A stretch of DNA of 64,000 nt from Clostridia bacterium (lineage in GTDB: Bacteria > Bacillota > Clostridia > Oscillospirales > RGIG577), in the NCBI GenBank assembly GCA_017513095.1, contig JAFWDJ010000022.1, positions 44,755 to 108,754 of the forward strand, read 5' to 3'. The notes under the pieces were generated by a model. It saw only the letters and a program-made list of their open reading frames with translations. It was not told the DNA's origin and did not search any database. Shown one piece after another: positions 11,490 to 42,672 of this stretch (within the stretch, counting starts at the first letter, position 1; each line of letters starts with the position of its first letter). A program made the translations under genes and the position numbers.

Positions 11490-13253
11490 GTGAACGGCGT
11501 GGATACGATTGGACGCGAGACCCTGGCCGACATACGCGCGGCCTGCGATATCGCGGATATAGTTTCGCAGTATGTGACGCTTACGAAAAGCGGCAGCGGA
11601 TATTTAAAGGGGCTTTGCCCTTTTCATTCCGAGAAAACGCCGTCGTTTACCGTAACGCCCGCGAAGGGCATATACAAATGCTTCGGCTGCGGCGAAAGCG
11701 GCGACGTTATAACGTTTATAATGAAAATAGAGGGCCTTGAATTTGTCGAGGCCGTGAAATTTTTGGCGCAGAAGGCCAATATTGAAATAAAAGTGAGCGG
11801 CGAGGACGAGGCGCGCATGAAACGACGGCGCACCCTTTACGATATTAACCGCGACGCGGCGAGATATTACTACTCGGTACTGACGCGCGACGACAAAAAC
11901 GACGGTATCGCGTACCTGAGACGCCGCGGGCTTGGCGACAAGCTCATCCGCACCTACGGCCTCGGGTTTGCCCAAAACGCGTGGGACGGACTTACGAAGC
12001 ACCTTTTGGGGCTCGGATACGCGCCCGATATGCTTACGGAGCTCGGCCTTGCGGTCAAAAACAAGTCGGGCGGACTTTACGACCGTTTCCGAAACCGCGT
12101 GATGTTTCCGATAATCGACATATCGGGCAACGTGATAGGCTTCGGCGGGCGCACGGTGTCCGGCGAGGGCGCGAAATACTTGAATTCGCCGGAAAGCCCG
12201 ATATTTAAAAAGAGCGAGAACCTGTTCTCCTTAAATTTCGCCAAGGCCCAAAAGAGCGACACGCTCATATTGGCGGAGGGGTACATGGACGTTATATCGC
12301 TTTACGGCGCGGGCTTTAAGAATGCCGCGGCGTCGCTCGGAACGTCCCTTACGGCGCAGCAGGCGCGTCTTGCGGCGCGGTACTTTAAAAAGATAGCCAT
12401 CGCCTACGATTCCGACAGCGCGGGACGCGCGGCCTCAGTAAAGGCGCTGAACCTTTTTTCCGATTTGAGCGTCGAGGTAAAGGTACTCGACTTAGGCGAC
12501 AAGAAGGACCCCGACGAATTTATCCGCGCGTACGGCGCGGGCGCGTTCTCAAAGCTTTTCGACTCGTCAAAGGGGTACATAGATTACGCGCTTTACGAGC
12601 TTGCCCAAAAGAACGACATAAGAGAGCCGCAGGGCAAGGTGGGCTTTCTTCGCGGCGCGGCGCGCATACTTGCCGAGGTGCAAAGCTCGCTCGAACGCGA
12701 CGTGTACACGGCGAAGATCGCGAACGAGTACGAGGTTTCGCGCGAGGCGCTCGAGGGCGAAATCCGGCGCATTGCCAAACTGAACAGGCGGCAGGCCGAA
12801 ACGAAGCGAAAGCGCGAGCTTATATCGCCGGGGCCGAAAAAAACGGCTCCGCCGACGCCCGAACAGCTTATCCTTTCGATACTCTACGACGAGCCGACGC
12901 TCTGCGGCGAGATCGAGGGAAGGCTTTCGCCCGGGGACTTAAAAAGCGAGACGGACGCAAAGATACTTAAATATATCATTAAGGCTTACGAAGGCGGCCG
13001 CCTTCCCGATATATCGGAGGCGCACGGCGAGCTTTCGGCGGATGAGGTGTCATACCTCGCCTCGATTGTCGGGAACAGCTTTTCCGACAGAAAGGGAACG
13101 CTTTTCGACCTTGTATCAAAGCTTGAGGAGGAGCGCCTAAAGGCGCAGAGCGCCGAAGGCGGCGGAAGCGAGGCCGAATGGGTTAAGCATCTTAAAAAGA
13201 AAAAAGCAGGCAACTCTGAAAAGAAGGATGGAGATAAATATGGCAGAAGATAA
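11490..13253 (+). CDS. dnaG: DNA primase
   Basis: 587 aa. Zinc-ribbon [11 protein letters not shown]...CFGCGESGD and TOPRIM EGYMDV...DSDSAG. The start is a GTG at 11490; 11499 is also possible. GGGAGGTG lies just upstream. Confidence 0.92.
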
Positions 13254-14319
13254 GACCAATATTTTAAAGGACCTGATGGAAACGGCGAAAAAGCGCGGCA
13301 GCATGTCCAATAAAGAGATACTCGACATGCTGGAGGACGTCGATATCGACGTCGAGGTCATGGAAAAGCTCTACGAGACTTTTGAAAGTCTCGGCATAGA
13401 GATAATACCCGACGTTGAGGAGATATCGCCGGAGGATCTGGCGATACCCGACCTGCAGAGCGATTCGTCGCAGGCCTCGGGCGACGCATTGGCGATAGAC
13501 GACCCCGTCAGGATGTACTTAAAGGAGATAGGCAAGGTAAACCTTTTGTCGGGCGATGAGGAGATAGAGCTTGCAAAGCGCATGGCCGAGGGCGACGAGG
13601 AGGCCAAAAAGAGGCTGGCTGAGGCGAATCTCAGGCTCGTCGTAAGCATCGCGAAGCGCTACGTCGGCCGCGGAATGCTCTTTTTGGACCTTATCCAGGA
13701 GGGCAACATGGGCCTTATAAAGGCCGTGGAGAAATTCGACTATACGCGCGGCTATAAGTTCTCCACGTACGCGACGTGGTGGATACGCCAGGCGATAACG
13801 CGCGCTATTGCCGACCAGGCGCGCACGATACGCATACCCGTGCACATGGTCGAAACGATAAACAAGATAATAAGAGTATCGCGTCAGCTTCTTCAGGAGC
13901 TCGGTCACGACCCGCAGCCGGAGGAGATAGCAAAAGAGATGAACATGCCGGTCGAGAAGGTGCGCGAGATAATGAAGATAGCCCAGGAGCCGGTGTCGCT
14001 TGAGACGCCGATAGGCGAGGAGGAGGACAGCCATCTCGGTGACTTTATACAGGACAACGACTCGCCCGAGCCCGCGATAGCCGCGGCGGAAACGCTTTTA
14101 AAGGAGCAGCTTGCCGAGGTATTAAAGACGCTTACCGAGCGTGAGGCCACCGTGCTTCAGCGCAGATTCGGCCTTATCGACGGCCGCGCGCGCACGCTCG
14201 AGGAGGTAGGAAAGGAATTTAACGTAACGCGCGAGCGCATACGCCAGATAGAGGCAAAGGCTTTAAGAAAGCTTCGTCATCCCAGCCGCTCCAAACGGCT
14301 CAAGGACTTTTTGGATTAG
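13240..14319 (+). CDS. rpoD: RNA polymerase primary-type sigma factor (RpoD/SigA), copy 1
   Basis: ATG at 13240 follows AAGGATGGAG. RpoD box [27 protein letters not shown], and regions 1.2, 2, 3 and 4.2 ([24 protein letters not shown]). Confidence 0.93.
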
Positions 14320-14341
14320 AATGTGATTTTCGGAGGAAAGC

Positions 14342-15469
14342 ATGGCTGACGATAAGAATATAATCCTAAGCAGAATAATGTCCCTTGTCAAAGAAAAGGG
14401 CAGCATAACGAATAAGGATATGCTCGACATTCTTGACGAGGTCGATATAGACGTTGACGCCGTCGAAAAGCTCTACGATACGCTCGAGAGCATGGGCATA
14501 AAGATAACGGGCGATTTCGACGAGCCTTTTGATTTGGGCGAGGACGATTTTTCCGAGGAAGGCGGGGAGGGCGAGGAAGGCGGAGAGCCTTCGCCCCGCG
14601 CGGGCGTATCCGACGCGGACCGCCTCGTATACGATCCCGTGAAAATGTATCTTCGCGAGATAGGCAGCATACCGCTTCTGTCGGCGACGGACGAAACGAC
14701 GCTCGCCGAGCGCATGGCACAGGGCGACGCGGAGGCGCGAAACGAGCTCATAGAGGCAAACTTAAGGCTTGTCGTAAGCATTGCAAAGCGCTACGTCGGC
14801 CGCGGAATGCCGTTTTTGGACCTCATACAGGAGGGCAACATAGGCCTTATGAAGGCCGTTGAAAAATTCGATTATACGCGCGGCTACAAATTCTCCACGT
14901 ACGCGACGTGGTGGATACGCCAGTCGGTCTCGCGCGCGATAGCCGATCAGGCGCGCACGATACGCATACCCGTACATATGGTGGAGTCGATAAACAAGAT
15001 AAACCGCGTTTCGCGCCGCCTTACTCAGGAGCTTGGACACGAGCCCACGCCCGAGGAGATAGCGCACGAGCTTTCGATGAGCCCCGAAAGAGTGAGCGAC
15101 ATTATGAAGCTTGCGCAGGAGCCTGTGTCTTTGGATATGCCGATAGGCGAGGAGGACGACGGTACCTTGGGCGACTTTATAAAGGATTCCGATTCGCCCG
15201 ACCCCGAGTATCTCGCCGCGCTTCAGATGCTCAAGGCTCAGATAGAGGACGTGCTTACGAAGCTTACGCCCAGGGAGGCGGAGGTAATACGCATGAGATT
15301 CGGGCTTATGCCCGACGGACGCATACGCACGCTTGAGGAAACGGGAATATACTTCAACGTGACGCGTGAGCGCGTGCGCCAGATTGAGGCAAAGGCATTA
15401 AGAAAGCTTCGCCATCCGAGCCGTTCAAAGCAGCTTCGCGACTTTTACGTCTATCAAAAGGGCTTTTAG
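14342..15469 (+). CDS. RNA polymerase primary-type sigma factor, tandem paralog
   Basis: 375 aa, 22 nt downstream of copy 1, with a GGAGGA RBS. It has the same region 2-4 signatures ([27 protein letters not shown]; [24 protein letters not shown]). There is an extra Gly/Glu-rich segment in the N-terminal region. Confidence 0.92.
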
Positions 15470-15484
15470 TTGATATTGGGGTAT

Positions 15485-15517: not shown

Positions 15518-15826
15518 AAGTTGTGGCTTTAAGTATGGCTGCGCTAACCGGGGAGGCAGCGGCCCCCTGTCGCCTGCAATCCGCTATAGCAGGGGTGAAT
15601 CCCCGTTTGAGGGGCGCGTCGGTGTGGCCGGTCTTTTGTAAGTGGTTATGACGAATTGGTCTTGTGCAACAGAAACCTGTGAACCTTGTCAGGCGGGGGA
15701 CCGAGCAGCAATAAGCAGTGATTTTTGTGTGCCGCAAGGCAGCCTGTTCCGAGCTAACTGCAAAATCAACGCATGTCGTCGCCGTTTCGAGAACGGGTGC
15801 GCAGTCTTACTTAGAGCCGCAGCTTT
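15518..15826 (+). ncRNA. ffs: signal recognition particle RNA, long Bacillus-type (with Alu domain)
   Basis: Alu-domain sequence GGGGAGGCAGCGG...CCUGCAAUCCGCUAUAGCAGGGGUGAAUCCCC and domain IV GUGAACCUUGUCAGG-CGG-GGGA-CCG-AGCAGC closely parallel B. subtilis scRNA. The 5' AAGUUGUGGCUUUAAG pairs with the 3' CUUAGAGCCGCAGCUU. Location directly upstream of dnaX is conserved synteny. Ends are approximate. Confidence 0.93.
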
Positions 15827-15850: not shown

Positions 15851-17659
15851 ATGTATCAGGCATTATACCGCAGATACCGTCCCAAGGTATTTGCGGACGT
15901 GGTAGGTCAGGATCATATAACGACTACGCTGAAAAACGAAATAAAAGAGGGGCGCATAGCCCACGCGTATCTCTTTACGGGCACGCGCGGCACGGGAAAA
16001 ACGACGTGCGCTAAAATTTTCGCGAAGGCCGTAAACTGCCTTTCGCCCCGCGACGGGGAGCCGTGCGGCGAGTGCAGCGTCTGCCGCGCCATAGAAAACG
16101 AGAGCATACTCGACGTTATAGAGATGGACGCCGCCTCTAATTCGGGCGTCGACAACATACGCGACCTTATCGACGATATAAGCGTTTCGCCGATGACGGC
16201 GAAGTATAAGGTTTACATAATCGACGAAGTGCACGCGCTTTCGGCGAACGCGTTCAACGCGCTTTTAAAAACGCTCGAGGAGCCGCCCGCCCACGCCATA
16301 TTCATATTGGCCACGACGGAGGTGCACAAGCTGTCGGCAACGATACTTTCGCGCTGCCAGCGATTCGATTTCAGGCGCGTGTCGGCTGATACGACAGCGG
16401 GCGTGCTTTCGCGCGCGCTTACGTCATCGGGCATACCGTTCGACGACGAAGCCGTGCTGGAGGTGGCGAGACTCGGAAACGGCTCCGTGCGCGACGCGCT
16501 GTCCGTGCTCGAACGCTGCATCTCCGCGAATGAGCGCCTGACGCGCGAACACGTTCTTTCGACGCTCGGAATGGCGAGCGACGAGATGCTTATGACCTTC
16601 ATGGACTGCTTTTATAAGAAGGATCTAACGCGCGCCCTCTCGCTTTCTGAGGAGGCGTACAACGAGGGCAAGAATATAAGCGTCATCTGTGAGCGCCTTA
16701 TCTGGATGTGCCGCTGCGTACTTGTGGCAAAGTCCGAAAAAGAGGGCGCGGCGCTTATAAAGAACACCGAAAGCAGCGCGGACGCGATAATCGCGTTTTC
16801 GAAGCGTGCCGTACTGACCGACGTGCTCCGGTGGGCGAAGGAGCTTTCGGAAACGCTCGACAGGCTGCCGAGAAGCATATCGGAGCGCATCGCGTTTGAA
16901 ATGTGCCTGATACGCCTCTGCGAAAGGCGCTTATCCGGGGACGAGGAAACGCTCGGTGAGCGAGTGGCAAGACTCGAGGACATGATAGCCTCGGGCAGCA
17001 TTGCGTTTGCCGCCGACGATACGCCGAAGGCGGAAACACCCGCGTCGAAGGCGGATAAACCAGCACAGAAGGCGGAAACACCCGCACCGAAGGCGGAAAC
17101 ACCCGCGTCGAAGGCGGAAAGACCCGCGCCGAAGGCGGAAACACCCGCGCCGGAGGCGGATAAATCAGCGCCGAAGGCTGACCCCCCCGCGCCGAAGGCG
17201 GAAACTCCTGCGCCGGAGCCCGAAAAAGAGGCGCCGGAGCCCGAAAAAGAGGCGCAGGCCGACGTTCAGCCGGCCGAGGAGCCCGACCCCGACGAAAAGC
17301 CCGCCGACGATACGGCGGAGGACGGCCTTCCCTTCGGAAGGTACGCAAAAACGATAGCCGAGGTCATGAAAAAAGACCCGATGACGGGCAGCATGCTTAA
17401 AAACACGGCCGCGTATGCGTATAAGACGCATATAGAGATAGTCTGCCCCAACGGCTTTACGAGGGACATGGTAAACGACGCAAAGAAGCTCATTGAGAGC
17501 GTCATATCGGCGCAGCTCGGCAAAAAGATGAAGATGGAGGCCGTGACGGGGGAAATAAAGCCCCGCGCCCGCGCAAAAAAGACGCCGGAGCCCGACCCGC
17601 TCGATTTAATAATTGAGTACGACGAGGAAAGAAACGTAAGCTTAGACGATTTAAAATAA
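15851..17659 (+). CDS. dnaX: DNA polymerase III subunit gamma/tau
   Basis: 602 aa. Walker A GTRGTGKTT, DEVH box, zinc module CGECSVC, and a Pro/Ala/Lys/Glu-rich repeat linker. Confidence 0.94.
   Translation: MYQALYRRYRPKVFADVVGQDHITTTLKNEIKEGRIAHAYLFTGTRGTGKTTCAKIFAKAVNCLSPRDGEPCGECSVCRAIENESILDVIEMDAASNSGVDNIRDLIDDISVSPMTAKYKVYIIDEVHALSANAFNALLKTLEEPPAHAIFILATTEVHKLSATILSRCQRFDFRRVSADTTAGVLSRALTSSGIPFDDEAVLEVARLGNGSVRDALSVLERCISANERLTREHVLSTLGMASDEMLMTFMDCFYKKDLTRALSLSEEAYNEGKNISVICERLIWMCRCVLVAKSEKEGAALIKNTESSADAIIAFSKRAVLTDVLRWAKELSETLDRLPRSISERIAFEMCLIRLCERRLSGDEETLGERVARLEDMIASGSIAFAADDTPKAETPASKADKPAQKAETPAPKAETPASKAERPAPKAETPAPEADKSAPKADPPAPKAETPAPEPEKEAPEPEKEAQADVQPAEEPDPDEKPADDTAEDGLPFGRYAKTIAEVMKKDPMTGSMLKNTAAYAYKTHIEIVCPNGFTRDMVNDAKKLIESVISAQLGKKMKMEAVTGEIKPRARAKKTPEPDPLDLIIEYDEERNVSLDDLK
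17026..17256 (+). repeat. in-frame tandem 21-bp repeats (11 units) inside dnaX
   Basis: Nine contiguous units of GAAGGCGGAAACACCCGCGCC-like sequence (KAETPAP heptads) plus two units of GGAGCCCGAAAAAGAGGCGCC, in exact 21-nt register from 17026. Confidence 0.9.
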
Positions 17660-18043: not shown

Positions 18044-18643
18044 ATGAGCTATTACATCGCGCCCGTCGCAAGGCTCATCGAGCAGTTTGAGCGGCTGCCC
18101 GGCATAGGACACAAGAACGCGCAGAGGCTTGCTTTTCATGTGCTGCGCATGGAGGAAAGCGAGGCCGAGGCTTTCGCCGCGGCCATAATCGACGCGCGCA
18201 AAAACGTGACCTACTGCCGCATTTGCCAGAATATTTCGCAAAATGAGGTGTGCAAGCTCTGCGCCGACTCCGCGCGCGACAAAAAGACGATATGCGTAGT
18301 CGAGCAGCCAAAGGACGTGGCCGCGATAGAGCGCACGCACCGCTACCGCGGCAGCTATCACGTGCTGCACGGCGTAATATCGCCCATAGACAACATAGGC
18401 CCGAACGACATTCGCGCGCGCGAGCTTTTAATGAGGCTCGGCGAGGAGGACGTATCCGAGGTCATTATGGCGACGAACCCCACGGTGGAGGGCGACGCCA
18501 CGGCGATGTATCTGTCGCGCCTTATAAAGCAGCTCGGCGTGAAGGTCACGCGCATAGCCTACGGCATACCAGTGGGCGGCGACCTTGAATATGCCGACGA
18601 TATAACGCTGATGCGCGCGCTCGAGGGACGAAGAGAAATATAG
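18044..18643 (+). CDS. recR: recombination protein RecR
   Basis: 199 aa. HhH LPGIGHKNAQRLAFH, C4 zinc finger CRICQNISQNEVCKLC, and a Toprim domain. Confidence 0.94.
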   Translation: MSYYIAPVARLIEQFERLPGIGHKNAQRLAFHVLRMEESEAEAFAAAIIDARKNVTYCRICQNISQNEVCKLCADSARDKKTICVVEQPKDVAAIERTHRYRGSYHVLHGVISPIDNIGPNDIRARELLMRLGEEDVSEVIMATNPTVEGDATAMYLSRLIKQLGVKVTRIAYGIPVGGDLEYADDITLMRALEGRREI

Positions 18644-18654
18644 TGCTTCAGGCC

Positions 18655-18870
18655 GTCAAAAAAGGGCCAGACCGCCGAAAAAAGAGAATATTAAGTGCGA
18701 AATACCTTGTGCAGATGTTTTTCGCGGCAAGATTTTCTGCTCGCCGCTTCAAAGAAGCTTTTGCGCCGTAACCTTGCGGTTACGGCGTTTTCGGCTATAT
18801 GCCGATTGCCTTCTCTACCGTATAACATACGCCGACGCTCGGCAATCGACAATTCTGACCTCTTTTTTGC
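18655..18870 (+). repeat. ~217-bp intergenic repeat element, copy A (MITE/PATE-like, structured)
   Basis: It shares its first ~45 nt and last ~115 nt at about 95% identity with 33111..33327. Imperfect terminal inverted repeats are GTCAAAAAAGGGCCAGA and TCTGACCTCTTTTTTG(A/C)C. There are internal conserved hairpins. Confidence 0.85.
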
Positions 18871-18910
18871 CGCCCCGTCGGAGTTTGTTTAGAAAAAAGG
18901 AGGAGCATTC

Positions 18911-19927
18911 ATGCCCTTACTGTTTGTACGCAACGACATAACGAAAATGAAATGCGACGCCATTGTAAACGCCGTTGACAACGATATGCACCCGGGCGGC
19001 GGCACGGACGCCGCGATACATAAGGCGGCGGGCCCCGGATTATTGGAGGAATGCATGAGTCTCGGCGGATGCCCCTCGGGCATGGCGAAGATAACGGGCG
19101 CCTACGACCTTAAATGCAAGTATGTCATACATACGGCGGGACCGCGCTGGCGCGGCGGAAGCGCGGGCGAGGAGGAGACGCTTGTTTCGTGCTGCCGCAA
19201 TTCCCTGCGGCTCGCGAGTGAGAACGGCTGTATGTCCGTCGCCTTCCCGCTCATATCGACGGGAACGTTCGGCTATCCGAAGGATTTGGCGCTTAAAACG
19301 ATGCAAAACGCGATCGCAGACTTCCTTACGGAAAACGACATGACCGTATACATCGTCGTTTACGATAAAGAGGGCTTTCTTGCAAGCAAAAAGCTTTCGG
19401 GCGAGATACGGGAGTACATAGACGAGAACTACGTTGAAAAGCATTTGGAGAAGCGCTCATATCATCAGCGCCGCAATCCTTTCGGGGCCCTTCCGGGGTT
19501 TTTCTCCTCGAAGTCAAGGGAGACTTTCGAGGCGGAGGACGCCGCGTTCTCCGTGGCGGGCAGCCTTGACGATATCGTGGACGAGCTCGACGAGAGCTTT
19601 TCGCAGATGCTGCTTCGCAAGATAACCGAGAAGGGCATGACGGACCCCGAATGCTACAAGCGCGCGAACGTCGACAGAAAGCTCTTCTCGAAGATAAGAA
19701 ACGACGTAAATTACAGGCCGAAGAAAACTACGGCAGTCGCGTTCGCCGTCGCGCTCAGGCTTTCTCTTGACGAGACGCGCGAGCTTCTTATGAAGGCGGG
19801 CTTCGCGCTTTCGCACAGCAGCAAATTCGACGTGATCGTGGAATACTTCATAAGCCGCGGCATTTACGATATCTTTACGATAAACGAGGCGCTTTTCGAG
19901 TACGATCAGGCGCTTTTAGGCGCGTGA
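18911..19927 (+). CDS. macro domain protein (ADP-ribose/O-acetyl-ADP-ribose hydrolase-like) with C-terminal HTH-like domain
   Basis: 338 aa. N-terminal macro signature DAIVNAVDN...GGGTDAAIHKAAG...VIHTAGP...SVAFPLISTGTFGYP. The C-terminal ~110 aa resemble an XRE-type HTH. Strong AAGGAGGAG RBS. Confidence 0.85.
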   Translation: MPLLFVRNDITKMKCDAIVNAVDNDMHPGGGTDAAIHKAAGPGLLEECMSLGGCPSGMAKITGAYDLKCKYVIHTAGPRWRGGSAGEEETLVSCCRNSLRLASENGCMSVAFPLISTGTFGYPKDLALKTMQNAIADFLTENDMTVYIVVYDKEGFLASKKLSGEIREYIDENYVEKHLEKRSYHQRRNPFGALPGFFSSKSRETFEAEDAAFSVAGSLDDIVDELDESFSQMLLRKITEKGMTDPECYKRANVDRKLFSKIRNDVNYRPKKTTAVAFAVALRLSLDETRELLMKAGFALSHSSKFDVIVEYFISRGIYDIFTINEALFEYDQALLGA

Positions 19928-32274: not shown

Positions 32275-33075
32275 ATGGTTTTAGCTATCGATATAGGCAA
32301 TACGAATATTGTTATGGGCGCCATCTCCGAGGAAAACGGGCGGCGCAGGATTCATTTCACGTCGCGCATATCTACCGACAAAAGCAAGACCGCGGATCAG
32401 CACGCGGTTGAGGTAAAGGATATATTTCATATGTACGGGCTCGACGTTTCCGCGCTCGACGGCGCGATAATCGCGTCCGTTGTGCCGTCCCTGTCCTTTG
32501 TTTTCGCAAGCGCGATAGAGCGCGTTATAGGAATTAAGCCCATGATGGTGGAGCCGGGCATGAAAACGGGCCTCGATATAAAAATAGACAACCCCGCCCA
32601 GCTCGGAAGCGACATCGTTGTGTCGTGCGTCGCCGCGATAGAAAAATACCCAACGCCGATGTGCGTTATAGACCTGGGCACGGCCACTACGATGACGGTT
32701 GTGGACAACAAGAACGCGATACTCGGCTGCCTTATTATCCCCGGTATAAGGATATCGCTCGAGGCGCTTCGCACGAACACGTCGCAGCTTCAGGACATAA
32801 GCCTCGACGCGCCTAAGAACCTCATAGGAAAGAATACGACGGACAGCATGAAGTCGGGGCTTATCATCGGAAACGCGGTCATGTTCGACGGCGTGCTCGA
32901 CCGCATAGAAAAACAGCTCGGGCGCGAGCTTACGGCCGTTGCGACGGGCGACCCGGCGCAGTTCGTCATCCCGCACTGCATGAGGGACATAAAGATAGAC
33001 GATAATCTGATGATGGACGGGTTATATATACTATATAAGAAGAACGCCGACATAAAAGCAGGTAAGCACAAATAA
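32275..33075 (+). CDS. coaX: type III pantothenate kinase
   Basis: The ATG at 32275 follows AAAGGGGG. Contains MVLAIDIGNTN and DLGTATT. Confidence 0.9.
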   Translation: MVLAIDIGNTNIVMGAISEENGRRRIHFTSRISTDKSKTADQHAVEVKDIFHMYGLDVSALDGAIIASVVPSLSFVFASAIERVIGIKPMMVEPGMKTGLDIKIDNPAQLGSDIVVSCVAAIEKYPTPMCVIDLGTATTMTVVDNKNAILGCLIIPGIRISLEALRTNTSQLQDISLDAPKNLIGKNTTDSMKSGLIIGNAVMFDGVLDRIEKQLGRELTAVATGDPAQFVIPHCMRDIKIDDNLMMDGLYILYKKNADIKAGKHK

Positions 33076-33076
33076 T

Positions 33077-33104
33077 AAAAAACGCCGGAAAATCCGGCGT
33101 TTTT
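33077..33104 (+). terminator. rho-independent terminator after coaX
   Basis: Stem ACGCCGGA/TCCGGCGT flanked by AAAAA and TTTT. Confidence 0.7.
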
Positions 33105-33110
33105 AAGTCT

Positions 33111-33327
33111 GTCAAAAAAGGGCCAGACCGCCGAAAAGAGTACAATAATAAAGCGAAAGAAGTCAGAAAGCAATTTATAGGCATGAGTTTTTCATACTCA
33201 CTGTTACAAATCGGCTTTTGCGCCGTAACCTTTGGTTTACGGCGTTTTCGGCTATGTGCCGATTGCCTCGCTACCGTATTTAATACGCCGACGCTCGGCA
33301 ATCGACAATTCTGACCTCTTTTTTGAC
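33111..33327 (+). repeat. ~217-bp intergenic repeat element, copy B
   Basis: See copy A. It has the same orientation, the same length, and conserved ends and hairpins. Confidence 0.85.
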
Positions 33328-33340
33328 ACCCTGTCGCCCC

Positions 33341-33700
33341 CTACGACGTATAATCCTCCGCGAAGCGGGCGGCCTCCTCCTTTGAGTAGAGCGCGACGCC
33401 CGAGGCGAACATCTCGCGGTCGGCGGGCGGCAGCGTTCTTACGTTCACGTCGAGCACGCGCGCCACCTCGCCCGTTTCGGGCCATATGAGGCAGAGCCTG
33501 CCGTCCCTTATAACGGCGGTCTGATAAGCCGCCGACGCGTCCGCGTCCGACGAGACCGAAACTACGCTCTCAGACGGCGCGCTTTCGTATACGCGGCGCG
33601 TATCGGGCGATGAGGGCGCGCCGCCTGATACGGGAAAGAGCGCCCAGATAAGCGAAAGGCATAAAACTGCGGGCAGGATGAGCATAAGCGGTCTGTTCAT
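33341..33700 (-). CDS. small secreted/membrane-anchored hypothetical protein
   Basis: The ATG at 33700 follows GAGGTG. It has an N-terminal signal/anchor MNRPLMLILPAVLCLSLIWALFP. No family recognised. Confidence 0.6.
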   Translation of the reverse strand: MNRPLMLILPAVLCLSLIWALFPVSGGAPSSPDTRRVYESAPSESVVSVSSDADASAAYQTAVIRDGRLCLIWPETGEVARVLDVNVRTLPPADREMFASGVALYSKEEAARFAEDYTS

Positions 33701-33747
33701 TGGCGGCACCTCGCGTTTCTATTTTATACGGATATTGTGACGCCGAT

Positions 33748-38063: not shown

Positions 38064-41000
38064 ATGGATAAAAAGAAGAACCTCGAGGAAAAGCAGGAAT
38101 TCAGGAATTTAAAGCGTTACGCGGACGCTATAATAAGCCATAACGACGACGATGAGTTTGAAGCCATATTAAAGGAGTTTTCAAGCGACCGCGAGCGTTA
38201 CGAGCGTACCGCGCCGAAGAAGTCGCAGCCGAAGGACGAAAAGCCGCCCGCGGAGCCCAGGCCCGCACGGGAGGAGAAAAGAAGCGCGCCCGAGCCGAGA
38301 GAGACCGTGCGCGAGGAAAGAAGAAGTGCGCCCGTGCCCAAGGCGGAGCCGAAGATTCCCGAAAAGAGCGTGCCCTTCGTTTACGAAAAGCGTCTTGACA
38401 AGAGCGACGTTTACAGTAACGAAATAAAGGAGCATAAGATATCCTTTGAAAACGCGCCGGAGGCCGTGAAGGATTTCGTCGATGAATCCGAGGCGGAGGC
38501 TCAGGACAGAAAGGCCAAGCTTCTCGATATGGCGTTCGGTCCCGCGAGCGCGGACGAGTTCGACGAGGACGCATCCACGGATATCGTGGCTTTTATAGAG
38601 AAAAAGAGCAAAAAGGACCCCTCCGACTACTATGCCGAGATTCTTGCCGAATCCGCAAAGGAGAAGGCGAAGAACGCCGCAAAGGAAAAGGCCATGAGAG
38701 CAAAGGAGGAGGCGGCAGAACATAAGTCCGTTATAGATATAGACATTGACGCGGACGTAAAGACAGCGCCCCCGCTTAAAAAAGAGCCCGCAGCGCCGCC
38801 GCCCGCGCCCGCCGCGTCCCCCGAGGATTTCCCGGAGGGTGTCATAGAAGAAAACGAGTCCGATCTCGTTAAGATGGGTCTTATCGTGGGCGTGAAGAAG
38901 AAGGCTCGGGAGGAAGTGCCCGAGGATACGGCGAATGACGAAGCCGAAGCCGTGCCGGAGAGCGAGGCGCCCGCACCCGAGGAGACGCCCGCAGCCGAAG
39001 AAGCGGCGCCCGAGGAGCCCATGGCCGAAGAAGAGACCGCGCCGACCGAAGAGGAAGGCGAGGCTTTGGCCGCAGAGGAAACGGCCGTGTTCGAGCCGAA
39101 GGCCGACGCACAGGATGCGCAGTCGGGCGAGACGCCTGAAGAGGCGCCGTCCGAAGAAGCCGAAGGCGCAGATGAGGCGCCCGAGACGGAAGGCGTAACC
39201 GACAAGACGATAAGAATAGAGCGTCCCGCCGAGCCCGGACGCGTAAAGAGCGACTGGGACGAGGACGAAGAAGACGAGGACGAATGGGAAGAGTGGGGCG
39301 AGCCCGAGGAGGACCTCGCCGGTGAATTAAAGAAGAAGTTTGAAGACAAGATAGGCTTTATAAAGAAGATACGTCCCGGCTCCGACGCTGAAGCCGGAGG
39401 CGAAGAGGGCGAAGAAGAGACCACGGACGAGGAAGAGGTCGACAGTCAGCAGAGCGAAGTAAACGAAGTTCTCGAGACGTTCGACGACCCCGAACAGGTA
39501 AACGTACAGGCCGACGAATACGACGAGGTCTACGACGTACTTACGGACGACAGCTCACGGTCATGGGTACGCATAATCGTATCGGCCATCGCCTTTGCGC
39601 TGCTTGCGCTCATTGACATATTCGATTTCGCCGGCATCGTTCCGCCCGGCGCGATGGGCACGAACGGCGACAAGATATACGCCGGAGTTGCGATAATCAT
39701 TTTGGCGATAGTTATCATAATGAACATAGACGTTATGAAAAACGGCGCGCGCACGCTGTTTTCAAACGGAAAGCAGCAGGGCGTAAGCTTTGTGTTCCTG
39801 TCTTCCGTTATCGTATCGGCGCACGCGGTCTATTCGTTCATAAGATGCCTTATGGTGGGAGAGGCGTTCACGTCCTACGCATCCGTAGTGGCTCTTGCGA
39901 TGCTTCTTTACGGCATAGGACGAAGGGTATACGACAGTACGCACATCAAGAACTTTGAAGCGATTTATGAAGCCGGAAGCGGCATAATGGAAGTTAAGAG
40001 CGTGGCCGACGGAGAGCTTACGAAGATCACGAGCAAATTCTCAACGCTGGGCAAAAACTTCTATTATAAGAATAACGCCCTTACGACCGGCGGATTTTTG
40101 GAGTACGCAAGAGGCGGCGAACGCGAGACGTCGCTTGGCAGCCGCATGACGAGCATAATACTTGCCGTTTCGGTGGTATGCTTCATCTTCGTTGCGGTAA
40201 TCTTAGGTCAGCGCGGCGGATTTGAAAGATGGTTCGGCCTTCTCGCCGCGGTATTCGCGATGGTGCTGCCCTCGATGTTCGAGTTTACGGGCGCGCTCGT
40301 ATTTGCGCGCTCCACGTCAAACGCGCGCAAGCAGGGCGCCGTAATAAGCGGCTCGGTCTGCGCGTCGAAGTACAGCGAGATGGAAGCGGTGCTGCTTGAC
40401 GACAGCGATATTTTCAGACGCGGCACCGTGCTCATAAAGAGCTTAAAGATTGTCGACAAGGACGTTATAACGAACATCCTGCCCGACGTTGCAAGCATTT
40501 TCGTAACGATAGACAGCCCCGCAAAGTATGCCTTTATGGACATAATCGACCATAAGGAGGAAATGCTCAAGCCCGTAAGCTTCTATGAGAGGATAGACGG
40601 CGAGGGACTTTTGGCGCTCGTTGACGGCGCGAAGATACTTCTCGGCAACCGTGACTTTATGGTAAGCCAGGGCGTAATACCCGCGTCGTATCCGGAGAAG
40701 TTCTTTAAAGAGGGCAAGGCGCGCTTCAATATGTACGTTGCGCTCGACGGAAAGCTCGTATGCGTATTCTCGATGGCGTATCTTCTCGATATCCACGCGG
40801 GCGAGGCGCTTATGAAGCTTGAAAGAGAGGACGTAAAGAGCGTTATAGCGACGTTCGACCCGAATCTTACGGAGCACGGCCTTAAGAATCTTTTCGACAT
40901 AACCGAGGGCGACAGCTTAAAGCTCATGCATCCGCAGGATATAATGAAGTTCAAGGAGCTTTTGTCCACGTCCGACCAGATAGGCAGAAGCGGCATGTAT

Positions 41001-41234
41001 CTTACGAAGCAGAGCGTGCTTTCGTTCACCGCGCTTGTGGGCGCGCTCAAGTCGATAAGATTTGCAACGCATATGAACAAGGTGTTTATGATGGCGGCTA
41101 TGATAGGCGCGCCGATACTGCTTACGCTCATCGCGATGTTCAACGGCATGACGCACATATCGCCGTTTATAATCATCCTGCTTCAGCTTTTGTGGAATAT
41201 CCCCGTATGGATAAATTCCGCGTTCGCAAAATAA
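38064..41234 (+). CDS. large membrane protein: ~500-aa acidic disordered N-terminus + degenerate P1B-type ATPase-like core
   Basis: 1056 aa. The N-terminal half is Glu/Asp/Lys/Pro/Ala-rich. From ~aa 505 there are multiple TM helices and a cytoplasmic region colinear with heavy-metal P-type ATPases, but with the catalytic motifs replaced (see finding). Confidence 0.7.
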   Translation: MDKKKNLEEKQEFRNLKRYADAIISHNDDDEFEAILKEFSSDRERYERTAPKKSQPKDEKPPAEPRPAREEKRSAPEPRETVREERRSAPVPKAEPKIPEKSVPFVYEKRLDKSDVYSNEIKEHKISFENAPEAVKDFVDESEAEAQDRKAKLLDMAFGPASADEFDEDASTDIVAFIEKKSKKDPSDYYAEILAESAKEKAKNAAKEKAMRAKEEAAEHKSVIDIDIDADVKTAPPLKKEPAAPPPAPAASPEDFPEGVIEENESDLVKMGLIVGVKKKAREEVPEDTANDEAEAVPESEAPAPEETPAAEEAAPEEPMAEEETAPTEEEGEALAAEETAVFEPKADAQDAQSGETPEEAPSEEAEGADEAPETEGVTDKTIRIERPAEPGRVKSDWDEDEEDEDEWEEWGEPEEDLAGELKKKFEDKIGFIKKIRPGSDAEAGGEEGEEETTDEEEVDSQQSEVNEVLETFDDPEQVNVQADEYDEVYDVLTDDSSRSWVRIIVSAIAFALLALIDIFDFAGIVPPGAMGTNGDKIYAGVAIIILAIVIIMNIDVMKNGARTLFSNGKQQGVSFVFLSSVIVSAHAVYSFIRCLMVGEAFTSYASVVALAMLLYGIGRRVYDSTHIKNFEAIYEAGSGIMEVKSVADGELTKITSKFSTLGKNFYYKNNALTTGGFLEYARGGERETSLGSRMTSIILAVSVVCFIFVAVILGQRGGFERWFGLLAAVFAMVLPSMFEFTGALVFARSTSNARKQGAVISGSVCASKYSEMEAVLLDDSDIFRRGTVLIKSLKIVDKDVITNILPDVASIFVTIDSPAKYAFMDIIDHKEEMLKPVSFYERIDGEGLLALVDGAKILLGNRDFMVSQGVIPASYPEKFFKEGKARFNMYVALDGKLVCVFSMAYLLDIHAGEALMKLEREDVKSVIATFDPNLTEHGLKNLFDITEGDSLKLMHPQDIMKFKELLSTSDQIGRSGMYLTKQSVLSFTALVGALKSIRFATHMNKVFMMAAMIGAPILLTLIAMFNGMTHISPFIIILLQLLWNIPVWINSAFAK

Positions 41235-41934: not shown

Positions 41935-42672
41935 ATGGCAGACAGCAGAGCAGCTATAAAAAAGACGAAAAAGCTCTACGACGAGGTGCTGGAGCTTCTT
42001 TTGGAGCGCGACAGGATGACGTATTTTGACAGCAAGGCGCTTCAGCTTCGCTATAACGAGGCTACGGAGGGTCTCTCGCTTAAGCTTCAGCGGCTTCAGA
42101 TAGATATGATAAAGCTTCAATACGTCCTTGCCGCCGTACAGGAGGGCACCGATCGCGGGGAGGCCGAAAGACGCGCCGACGAGGAGCTTTTGCAGGACGA
42201 GCTTTTCTATGAGATGCAAAGGCAGCTCAAAAATCCGCGCGATCTCCTTTCCGAGGACGAGTGCGAGGAGCTTGACGAGATTTACTCGGAGCTTCTTACG
42301 ATACTTAACCCCGATTTAAACCCCTGTCAGACGCTCGACACGGCAAGCCTGTTTATCTCGGCCTCGTCGGCGTATGAATACTGCAGAAAGGACGACCTTA
42401 GAGCCATTCTTGACGAGGCGCGAAAGTTCAAAACGCCCGATTATGAAGCCATGAGCGACTCCGAGCATGCACAGCGGCAGAAGGACCTTAAAACGGCGCG
42501 CGGTCAGATACGCACGATGATAGAGGAGATAGAGGACGAGTTCCCGTTCGATAAGGAGGAAATCTTAGACGACGAGGACGAGCTTGCCGCGGAAAAAGAG
42601 CGCCTTTTAAAGTCCGTTGAAACGGTTGGCGATATGATAGAGACGTGCCGCCGGATGCTTGAAGAGGCGTAA
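41935..42672 (+). CDS. acidic coiled-coil protein with a degenerate J-like domain (NPD instead of HPD)
   Basis: 245 aa with a TAAGGAGA RBS. The central segment ELDEIYSELLTILNPDLNP...FISASSAYEYCRKDDLRAIL parallels J-domain helices II-III. Confidence 0.6.
   Translation: MADSRAAIKKTKKLYDEVLELLLERDRMTYFDSKALQLRYNEATEGLSLKLQRLQIDMIKLQYVLAAVQEGTDRGEAERRADEELLQDELFYEMQRQLKNPRDLLSEDECEELDEIYSELLTILNPDLNPCQTLDTASLFISASSAYEYCRKDDLRAILDEARKFKTPDYEAMSDSEHAQRQKDLKTARGQIRTMIEEIEDEFPFDKEEILDDEDELAAEKERLLKSVETVGDMIETCRRMLEEA

Follow-up and report, generated by a model that had tools for sequence, protein, structure and literature searches.

Genes and features surrounding the repeat

The window analysed here (the whole 64-kb stretch of DNA) carries two copies of a small repeat, which we refer to as copy A and copy B. 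Copy A follows the gene order SRP RNA, dnaX, ybaB, recR; recR, recognised by its Pfam RecR domains, ends at 18643, the copy begins 10-12 nt past the recR stop codon, and a gene encoding a Macro-domain protein starts at 18911, approximately 30 nt beyond the end of the copy. Copy B is located after a type III pantothenate kinase gene (coaX) that ends at 33075, and lies between convergent genes. Both copies are found 12-36 nt from the 3' end of a gene, and the first-pass annotation, which had placed them just downstream of recR and coaX, was correct in this respect. The GC skew is positive throughout the window, and so the two copies are oriented alike with respect to replication. When Pfam annotation was carried over 83 kb of the contig it returned only housekeeping genes, with no gene for a transposase, recombinase, reverse transcriptase, Cas protein, TnpA, TnpB or IscB.

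A number of other features were noted in the window. The bacterial large SRP RNA is encoded at 15539-15804 (197 bits), directly upstream of dnaX, and is the only match of the window to Rfam 15. The dnaX gene (15851-17659) contains tandem 21-nt units at 16980-17273, present in at least 10 copies of 60-85% identity; the encoded DnaX has 602 aa, compared with 569-575 aa in relatives, and the repeat region therefore varies in length. Two tandem sigma-70 (rpoD-like) genes at ~13240-15470 share 74-78% DNA identity, and the pair is also present in sister taxa. A 300-nt direct repeat (524-823 and 2151-2450) is 98% identical, and part of a gene for a glycyl-radical-enzyme activase (26-946) has been duplicated into a 128-aa ORF that has no Pfam family. 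Two further ORFs, of 1056 aa (38064-41234) and 245 aa (41935-42672), have no Pfam family at E <= 0.001.

Two copies with conserved ends and a diverged centre

The first-pass annotation had described two + strand copies of a 217-nt element, and this was readily reproduced. A 27-mer from the left boundary has two exact matches in the window (18655-18681 and 33111-33137), as does a 34-mer from the right boundary (18836-18869 and 33292-33325), in each case on the + strand only, and no match to either string was found in 100 shuffles. An alignment by blastn (word size 7) that joins copy A to copy B spans 238 nt, of which 80% are identical (E = 5e-52); the search detected neither a third copy nor a fragment anywhere in the 64 kb. 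The ends that had been assigned to the copies were set 1-2 nt too far to the right. The unit measures 217-227 bp depending on where its edges are drawn, since similarity extends ~5 nt further left and ~10 nt further right than had been noted, albeit more weakly, and we take ~227 nt as its length. The positions of the features of both copies are listed in Table 1.

Table 1. Positions of the two repeat units, their component helices and adjoining features in the window
Feature	Copy A	Copy B	Strand	Remarks
Whole repeat unit, including flanking 5-nt direct repeats	18653..18879	33109..33335	+	A: between recR and the Macro-domain gene; B: between the coaX terminator and the stop codon of the convergent 122-aa ORF
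5-nt direct repeat	18653-18657 and 18875-18879	33109-33113 and 33331-33335	+	CCGTC (A), CTGTC (B); read from sequence
P1 left arm (terminal inverted repeat)	18657..18671	33113-33127		CAAAAAAGGGCCAGA (A)
P2 5' arm	18674..18681	33130-33137		GCCGAAAA; pairs with TTTTCGGC at 18788-18795 (A) and 33245-33252 (B)
Diverged centre	18682..18762	33138-33219		GC 0.41 (A), 0.34 (B)
P4 hairpin	18763..18795	33220-33252	+	GCGCCGTAACC-TTGC-GGTTACGGCG then TTTT
P3 long hairpin	18800..18851	33257-33307		TGCCGATTGCC (18800-18810) / GGCAATCGACA (18841-18851)
P3 apical hairpin	18819-18831	33280-33282 (loop)		CGTAT-AAC-ATACG (A); loop TTA (B)
P1 right arm (terminal inverted repeat)	18854..18869	33310-33325		TCTGACCTCTTTTTTG (A)
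coaX intrinsic terminator		33078..33104		Bidirectional; 4 nt left of copy B; context, outside the repeat
Convergent 122-aa ORF		33341-33709	minus	Stop codon 5 nt past the end of copy B

The window belongs to a 275-kb contig of an ENA metagenome assembly. Four further independent assemblies of this species contain identical or nearly identical copies. Copy A was seen again in a Logan contig of this species, and copy B in two further ENA assemblies, with one SNP that falls at an unpaired junction. Because the copies recur in independent assemblies, we conclude that the repeat is not an assembly artefact. The Logan contig (SRR12529301) is identical to the window and ends at window position 18807, inside copy A and in a part common to copy B, as would be expected where an assembler meets a repeat.

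When the copies are aligned, it can be seen that the leftmost 27 nt are identical and that the right part, of ~113 nt, has 9 differences, while the centre is diverged. Conserved ends had been described previously and are fully borne out; the accompanying description of the centre as barely alignable was too strong. The centre comprises 82 and 83 nt in the two copies, or ~82 nt of alignment, over which the copies are 67% identical, with an alignment score six standard deviations above that of shuffled sequences (z = 6), indicating that the two centres are homologous and that one is not a swapped cassette. On this alignment we conclude that the centre is homologous but fast-diverging.

Helices and predicted fold

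The three hairpins that had been described for the right part of the unit, the apical loop that reads AAC in one copy and TTA in the other on a stem that is kept, and the terminal inverted repeat were all found as reported. The inverted repeat CAAAAAAGGGCCAGA/TCTGACCTCTTTTTTG forms 15 pairs with one bulge and, on the + strand, one C.A mismatch. Taken at its widest it spans 15-19 bp, carries an A-run and a T-run (A6...T6) and can close the whole unit as helix P1; in copy B it reaches TGTCAAAAAAG/CTTTTTTGACA, with 11 perfect terminal pairs. The predicted common fold has P1 as the closing helix, within which lie P3, a long hairpin with an internal loop and the apical CGTAT-NNN-ATACG, and P2, which encloses P4 together with the diverged centre. 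The left 45 nt of the unit forms no hairpin of its own.

Both strands are predicted to fold far more stably than shuffled sequences, the minus strand even more so. For RNA, minimum free energies of the minus strand were -91.2 (copy A) and -84.1 (copy B) kcal/mol, with z values of -7.6 and -7.5, compared with -77.7 and -69.7 kcal/mol and z values of -5.7 and -5.0 for the plus strand. The consensus fold ranks the strands likewise (minus -68.6, plus -52.8 kcal/mol), as do DNA parameters applied to copy A (minus -57.1, plus -45.5 kcal/mol). The minus strand folds better because the mismatches in P1 and P3, which are C.A on the + strand, become U.G pairs on the minus strand.

Two structures in the unit resemble terminators and no others do. 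P4 (11 bp, stems at 18763-18787, -19.3 kcal/mol) followed by UUUU looks, as modelled, like an intrinsic terminator on the + strand only, and on both strands a U6 run comes after P1. No promoter-like site was found within or next to the conserved sequence, in either copy or on either strand.

We noticed that the variable apical loop of P3 and the adjacent stem arm are complementary to sequence flanking the unit. In copy A, 18824-18837 could pair with 18876-18889 (12 of 14 pairs), and in copy B 33279-33290 with 33095-33106 (10 of 12 pairs), the flank being on the opposite side from that in copy A. A guide-like role for this complementarity was rejected, as it was not significant against shuffled flanks except nominally in copy A (p = 0.013, one of four tests), and it is probably due to chance.

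The unit is flanked by a 5-nt direct repeat that differs at one position between the copies but is matched on both sides within each copy, and the right-hand repeat sits 6 nt beyond the inverted repeat. It is possible that this represents a target-site duplication, a reading for which a single co-varying position speaks. Alternatively, the same nucleotides could be an extension of P1 (TGTC...GACA in copy B) or part of a right-end hairpin, GACR-CCC-YGTC.

Differences between the copies avoid the helices

The 131 conserved columns comprise 98 that are paired and 33 that are unpaired in the consensus fold, and all nine differences are unpaired (Fisher 1.6e-6). The consensus structure derives from both sequences, and the count was therefore repeated with a single-copy fold; two of the nine differences then fell among 102 paired positions and seven among 29 unpaired ones (p = 3.6e-4). 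In the centre there was no paired or unpaired bias of the differences, and pairs predicted there are not kept between copies. The base of P1 has a single compensatory pair, C-G to U-A, and no change was seen in the other helices, bearing in mind that there are only two distinct sequences to compare.

To place these figures on a scale, the Jukes-Cantor distance between the two centres is 0.43, and divergence at four-fold degenerate sites from the nearest sequenced sister species is 0.41 raw and 0.60 after Jukes-Cantor correction. It follows that the helices have remained unchanged while unconstrained sequence has changed at about one site in three. Gene conversion was rejected as the source of the identical stems, as identities and differences alternate on a scale of 3-10 nt. 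Likewise the copies are not the template and variable repeats of a diversity-generating retroelement (DGR), as the differences are not limited to adenines.

The element has no coding capacity. Six-frame translation gave no ORF common to both copies, and a 1-nt indel shifts every frame. Copy A does contain, on the minus strand (18850-18680), a 57-aa ORF with a TTG start 6 nt after a Shine-Dalgarno-like AGAGG. A small-protein gene was nevertheless rejected, as this frame stops after 18 codons in copy B owing to the 1-nt indel. An origin from tRNA or tmRNA was also rejected, as ARAGORN found neither.

The element is a derived feature of the recR-macro spacer

RecR homologues at 92-96% identity are encoded by sister-taxon 'Clostridia bacterium' metagenome-assembled genomes from studies of the ruminant gut. 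The spacer between recR and the Macro-domain gene is 267 bp here and 72-78 bp in five sister-taxon contigs of this identity range, and the element was absent from the spacer in all five. What the sister-taxon spacers have in common instead is a conventional terminator, the hairpin ACGCGGC...GCCGCGT with a T-run behind it, which in a relative's spacer was calculated at -20.7 kcal/mol. Since these spacers are short and have an ordinary terminator, the ancestral state was a plain terminator and the presence of the element is derived in this lineage; judged from this comparison of spacers, the element is a derived insertion or replacement at the recR locus. A base-exact empty site was not found among the relatives, as the divergence of their spacers prevents an alignment with the sequence on either side of copy A. 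When the element and one flanking repeat are removed in silico, the local spacer that is left has 45 nt and no terminator-like fold (z = -0.04). More distant relatives (RecR 86-90%, CoaX 88%) also lack the element, and have different neighbouring genes.

Searches for further copies and for related families

Two copies are all that we were able to find. With nhmmer there were no extra copies in a further 20 kb of the same contig, which brought the coverage of this genome to 83 kb in all, and neither nhmmer nor a covariance model detected a copy in ~115 kb of the relatives' loci. A covariance model of the P3-P4 core, run over ~200 kb including the window, similarly gave no additional copy. The right end also resembles 13590-13614 weakly, but that stretch is part of a sigma-factor gene and the resemblance was dismissed as chance.

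Larger collections were then covered by string and pattern searches. Two strings, a 21-mer and a 20-mer taken from the two best-conserved blocks, had no exact match in GTDB representative genomes; JGI metagenomes had no match to the exact 21-mer or to a peptide pattern of the element's open frame, a scan that tolerates third-position changes; IMG/VR had none to the 21-mer, the 20-mer, the peptide pattern or a degenerate inverted repeat with a 170-200-nt gap; and plasmid and phage records had none by blastn (word size 11, copy A only). These results are to be read in the light of the fact that the host species is present only in ENA and Logan assemblies, outside the collections scanned by DNA. 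A concatenated six-frame translation, aimed at copies miscalled as genes, had no match among 5.8 billion predicted proteins.

With regard to RNA families, the first-pass annotation had stated that the element matched none that was known, and this is confirmed by the covariance-model search that was called for. Against Rfam 15, nothing on the element came near a gathering threshold. At E values up to 10, cmscan gave weak matches to unrelated families only, the best being glmS (13 bits, E = 0.8). Finally, no autonomous parent insertion sequence was found: neither end of the element recurs in the window or in the fetched loci, and there is no transposase domain in the 83 kb.

A proposed non-autonomous, MITE-like repeat

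What kind of element is this? The reading that we favour, which in our estimate has about an even chance of being right, is that it is a non-autonomous MITE-like or SPRITE/BOX-like interspersed repeat with a terminator-like architecture. We arrive at it because the unit has inverted-repeat ends and no coding capacity, is positioned behind genes, has a derived presence and a possible target duplication, and has no protein gene of its own nearby. A MITE was also the first of the identities proposed at first pass, and of the three it has the best support. The inverted repeat, the non-coding sequence, the 3' intergenic position, the absence from sister taxa and the possible 5-bp duplication agree with that proposal. 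Against it, only two copies and no parent insertion sequence were found, the outcome that the first-pass annotation had said would refute its proposal, though in data that cover 83 kb of the genome.

If this reading is correct, a transposase or recombinase supplied in trans would have placed the copies in 3' intergenic spacers, beside or in place of intrinsic terminators. The two copies would go back to active lineages that had diverged while keeping the cis-acting helices, and their insertion would be recent. Any present function would presumably be exerted in cis on transcripts. At the recR locus the element would have replaced the native terminator, leaving P4 with UUUU and P1 with U6 as the sole terminator-like structures. 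Given the loss of the native terminator, the predicted hairpins suggest that the element may now supply termination at recR.

Several observations weigh against a MITE. First, there are no changes in 98 paired positions, compared with 33% change in the centre, and this conservation is stronger than is usual for decaying MITE copies. It would also fit selection for a host function. Differences that spare the stems also fit two copies of active but diverged ancestry in which the cis-acting parts were kept. Second, only two copies were found in 83 kb and none in any other collection scanned, so that a multi-copy family is conjectural, and no parent insertion sequence or transposase was seen. Third, the putative target duplication depends on one co-varying position for which there are other readings, and the relatives offer no clean empty site.

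Among described small repeats, its nearest functional analogues are BOX and SPRITE of the pneumococcus. SPRITE, BOX and RUP elements have the same bias towards the 3' ends of genes (Croucher et al., PMC3049150). Like our element, the BOX repeats of Streptococcus pneumoniae (boxA-boxB(n)-boxC) are small, non-coding and intergenic and are enriched behind genes; they have conserved 5' and 3' modules with inverted repeats that hybridise to close the structure, and a variable middle module that makes few contacts to the ends (PMC3049150). No sequence relationship was seen, however, and whereas BOX varies in the number of boxB modules, the middle of the present element is a diverged homologue of constant length. 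In addition, its conserved 3' part is much longer (~115 nt, with three hairpins), and two copies are known here compared with ~125 for BOX (PMC3049150).

SPRITE resembles the element in having termini with A and T runs, in its stem followed by a U-rich tract, in its location near the 3' ends of (convergent) genes, for which co-option as a terminator has been suggested, and in that target duplication could not be established (PMC3049150). SPRITE nonetheless consists of one 18-bp duplex plus a long U tract and is AT-rich, at 28% GC (PMC3049150), whereas our element is a multi-helix domain whose terminator-like hairpin is in mid-unit and whose A and T runs are on the outer closing helix. MITEs such as Correia, ERIC and RUP share with it the size class, terminal inverted repeats, lack of coding capacity, a stable predicted fold, intergenic location and presence or absence between related genomes (PMC10969869), but our element departs from them in that only two copies were found, the target duplication is ambiguous and no parent insertion sequence with matching ends was detected.

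A possible structured RNA encoded on the minus strand

Another explanation takes copies A and B as a pair of paralogous genes, each for a structured non-coding RNA of ~225 nt transcribed from the minus strand. We regard this as the main competitor to the MITE-like reading, though a less likely one. The RNA would form a three-way junction of P1, P3 (with a variable apical loop) and P2, the last enclosing P4 and a fast-evolving module. Its conserved scaffold would serve for protein binding or fold into a functional core, and the paralogues would owe their individual specificities to the variable module. The stand-alone small RNA suggested by the first-pass annotation is close to this proposal, and it gains from the conservation of the stems, which are unchanged while the loops and centre vary, and from the markedly better fold of the minus strand by every measure used (MFE, z, consensus and DNA parameters), where the C.A mismatches of P1 and P3 become U.G pairs. 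In addition, the divergence of the centre (JC 0.43) is of the same order as the neutral divergence from the sister species (JC 0.60), and therefore the stems could be held by selection in place. The compensatory C-G to U-A change at the base of P1 points in the same direction.

This explanation is, however, weakened by what surrounds the copies. No conserved sequence or promoter-like site is found upstream on the minus strand in either copy, similarity ends ~10 nt outside P1, copy A has no minus-strand gene upstream of it, and the orthologous spacer of all relatives examined, the syntenic site, is without the element. There is also no Rfam match. Apart from the one compensatory pair, the helices show invariance and no covariation, and the strand preference depends on two mismatches, a result with a chance of about one in four.

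The closest analogy that we can offer is with OmrA and OmrB of enterobacteria, paralogous sRNAs of ~85 nt that share their ends and have different centres. They have known promoters and terminators, and a syntenic locus that is conserved across genera. The resemblance is that the two copies lie close together and point the same way, and that their 5' and 3' parts are almost identical and their centres divergent. The present element differs in having no detected promoter and no synteny in relatives, and any RNA made from it would be ~225 nt and highly structured.

Taken one step further, the copies might define a new class of ~225-nt minus-strand RNA, with a three-way-junction scaffold of 49 invariant base pairs in which an 80-nt module and two loops are free to vary, the copies being either genes in their own right or exapted insertions. 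We think this improbable. Were it so, the scaffold would serve as a catalytic or protein-binding core, with specificity set by the module, and the class would so far be confined to one uncultured lineage of ruminant-gut Clostridia.

Readings that fit poorly

Two further possibilities are, in our view, very unlikely. One, put forward at first pass and not sustained here, is that the element is a palindrome-associated element (PATE) derived from an IS200/IS605 insertion sequence, in which a TnpB encoded at another locus would use the right 115 nt as its omega/reRNA scaffold, with the flank past the right end as the guide. The conserved right part is indeed extensive and structured, the two copies run the same way with respect to replication, and the left flanks end in the similar pentanucleotides CCGTC and CTGTC, as a fixed target or TAM would. 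Yet the right pentanucleotide changes with the left one, which a fixed element end would not do. IS200/IS605 elements carry subterminal hairpins at both ends, which are not known to be inverted repeats that pair with each other, whereas the ends of the present element are true inverted repeats that do, and no separate hairpin forms within its left 45 nt. Furthermore, cmscan at E values up to 10 gave no HEARO, IS605-orfB or other transposon-associated RNA, no tnpA, tnpB or iscB gene is present in the 83 kb, and the strand that folds better is the opposite one.

The other, to which we attach equally little weight, is that each copy is a DNA recombination site, either an invertible phase-variable segment or an att-like site, served by a recombinase in trans. 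Such a site could have a 15-19-bp inverted repeat bounding ~185 bp, an AT-rich centre with -10-like hexamers, and conserved ends around a variable interior, all of which are seen here; but the orientation is the same in five of five independent assemblies, no recombinase gene lies in the 83 kb, conservation covers 115 nt of internal hairpins, far beyond the needs of a site, and a relative without the element keeps the gene order between the copies. Given this shared gene order, the 14 kb between the copies do not form an island, and the idea that the repeats are the att sites of one was rejected.

Significance

What the repeat signifies depends on the source of the stem conservation. If it reflects a host function, the element would be of greater importance, as either a structured RNA or a cis-acting 3' element that is new, from gut anaerobes in which almost no non-coding RNAs have been studied experimentally. 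If the MITE-like reading is correct, it would be one more lineage-specific small repeat, chiefly of use for marking strains, and would illustrate how a mobile element can take the terminator position behind an essential gene, recR.
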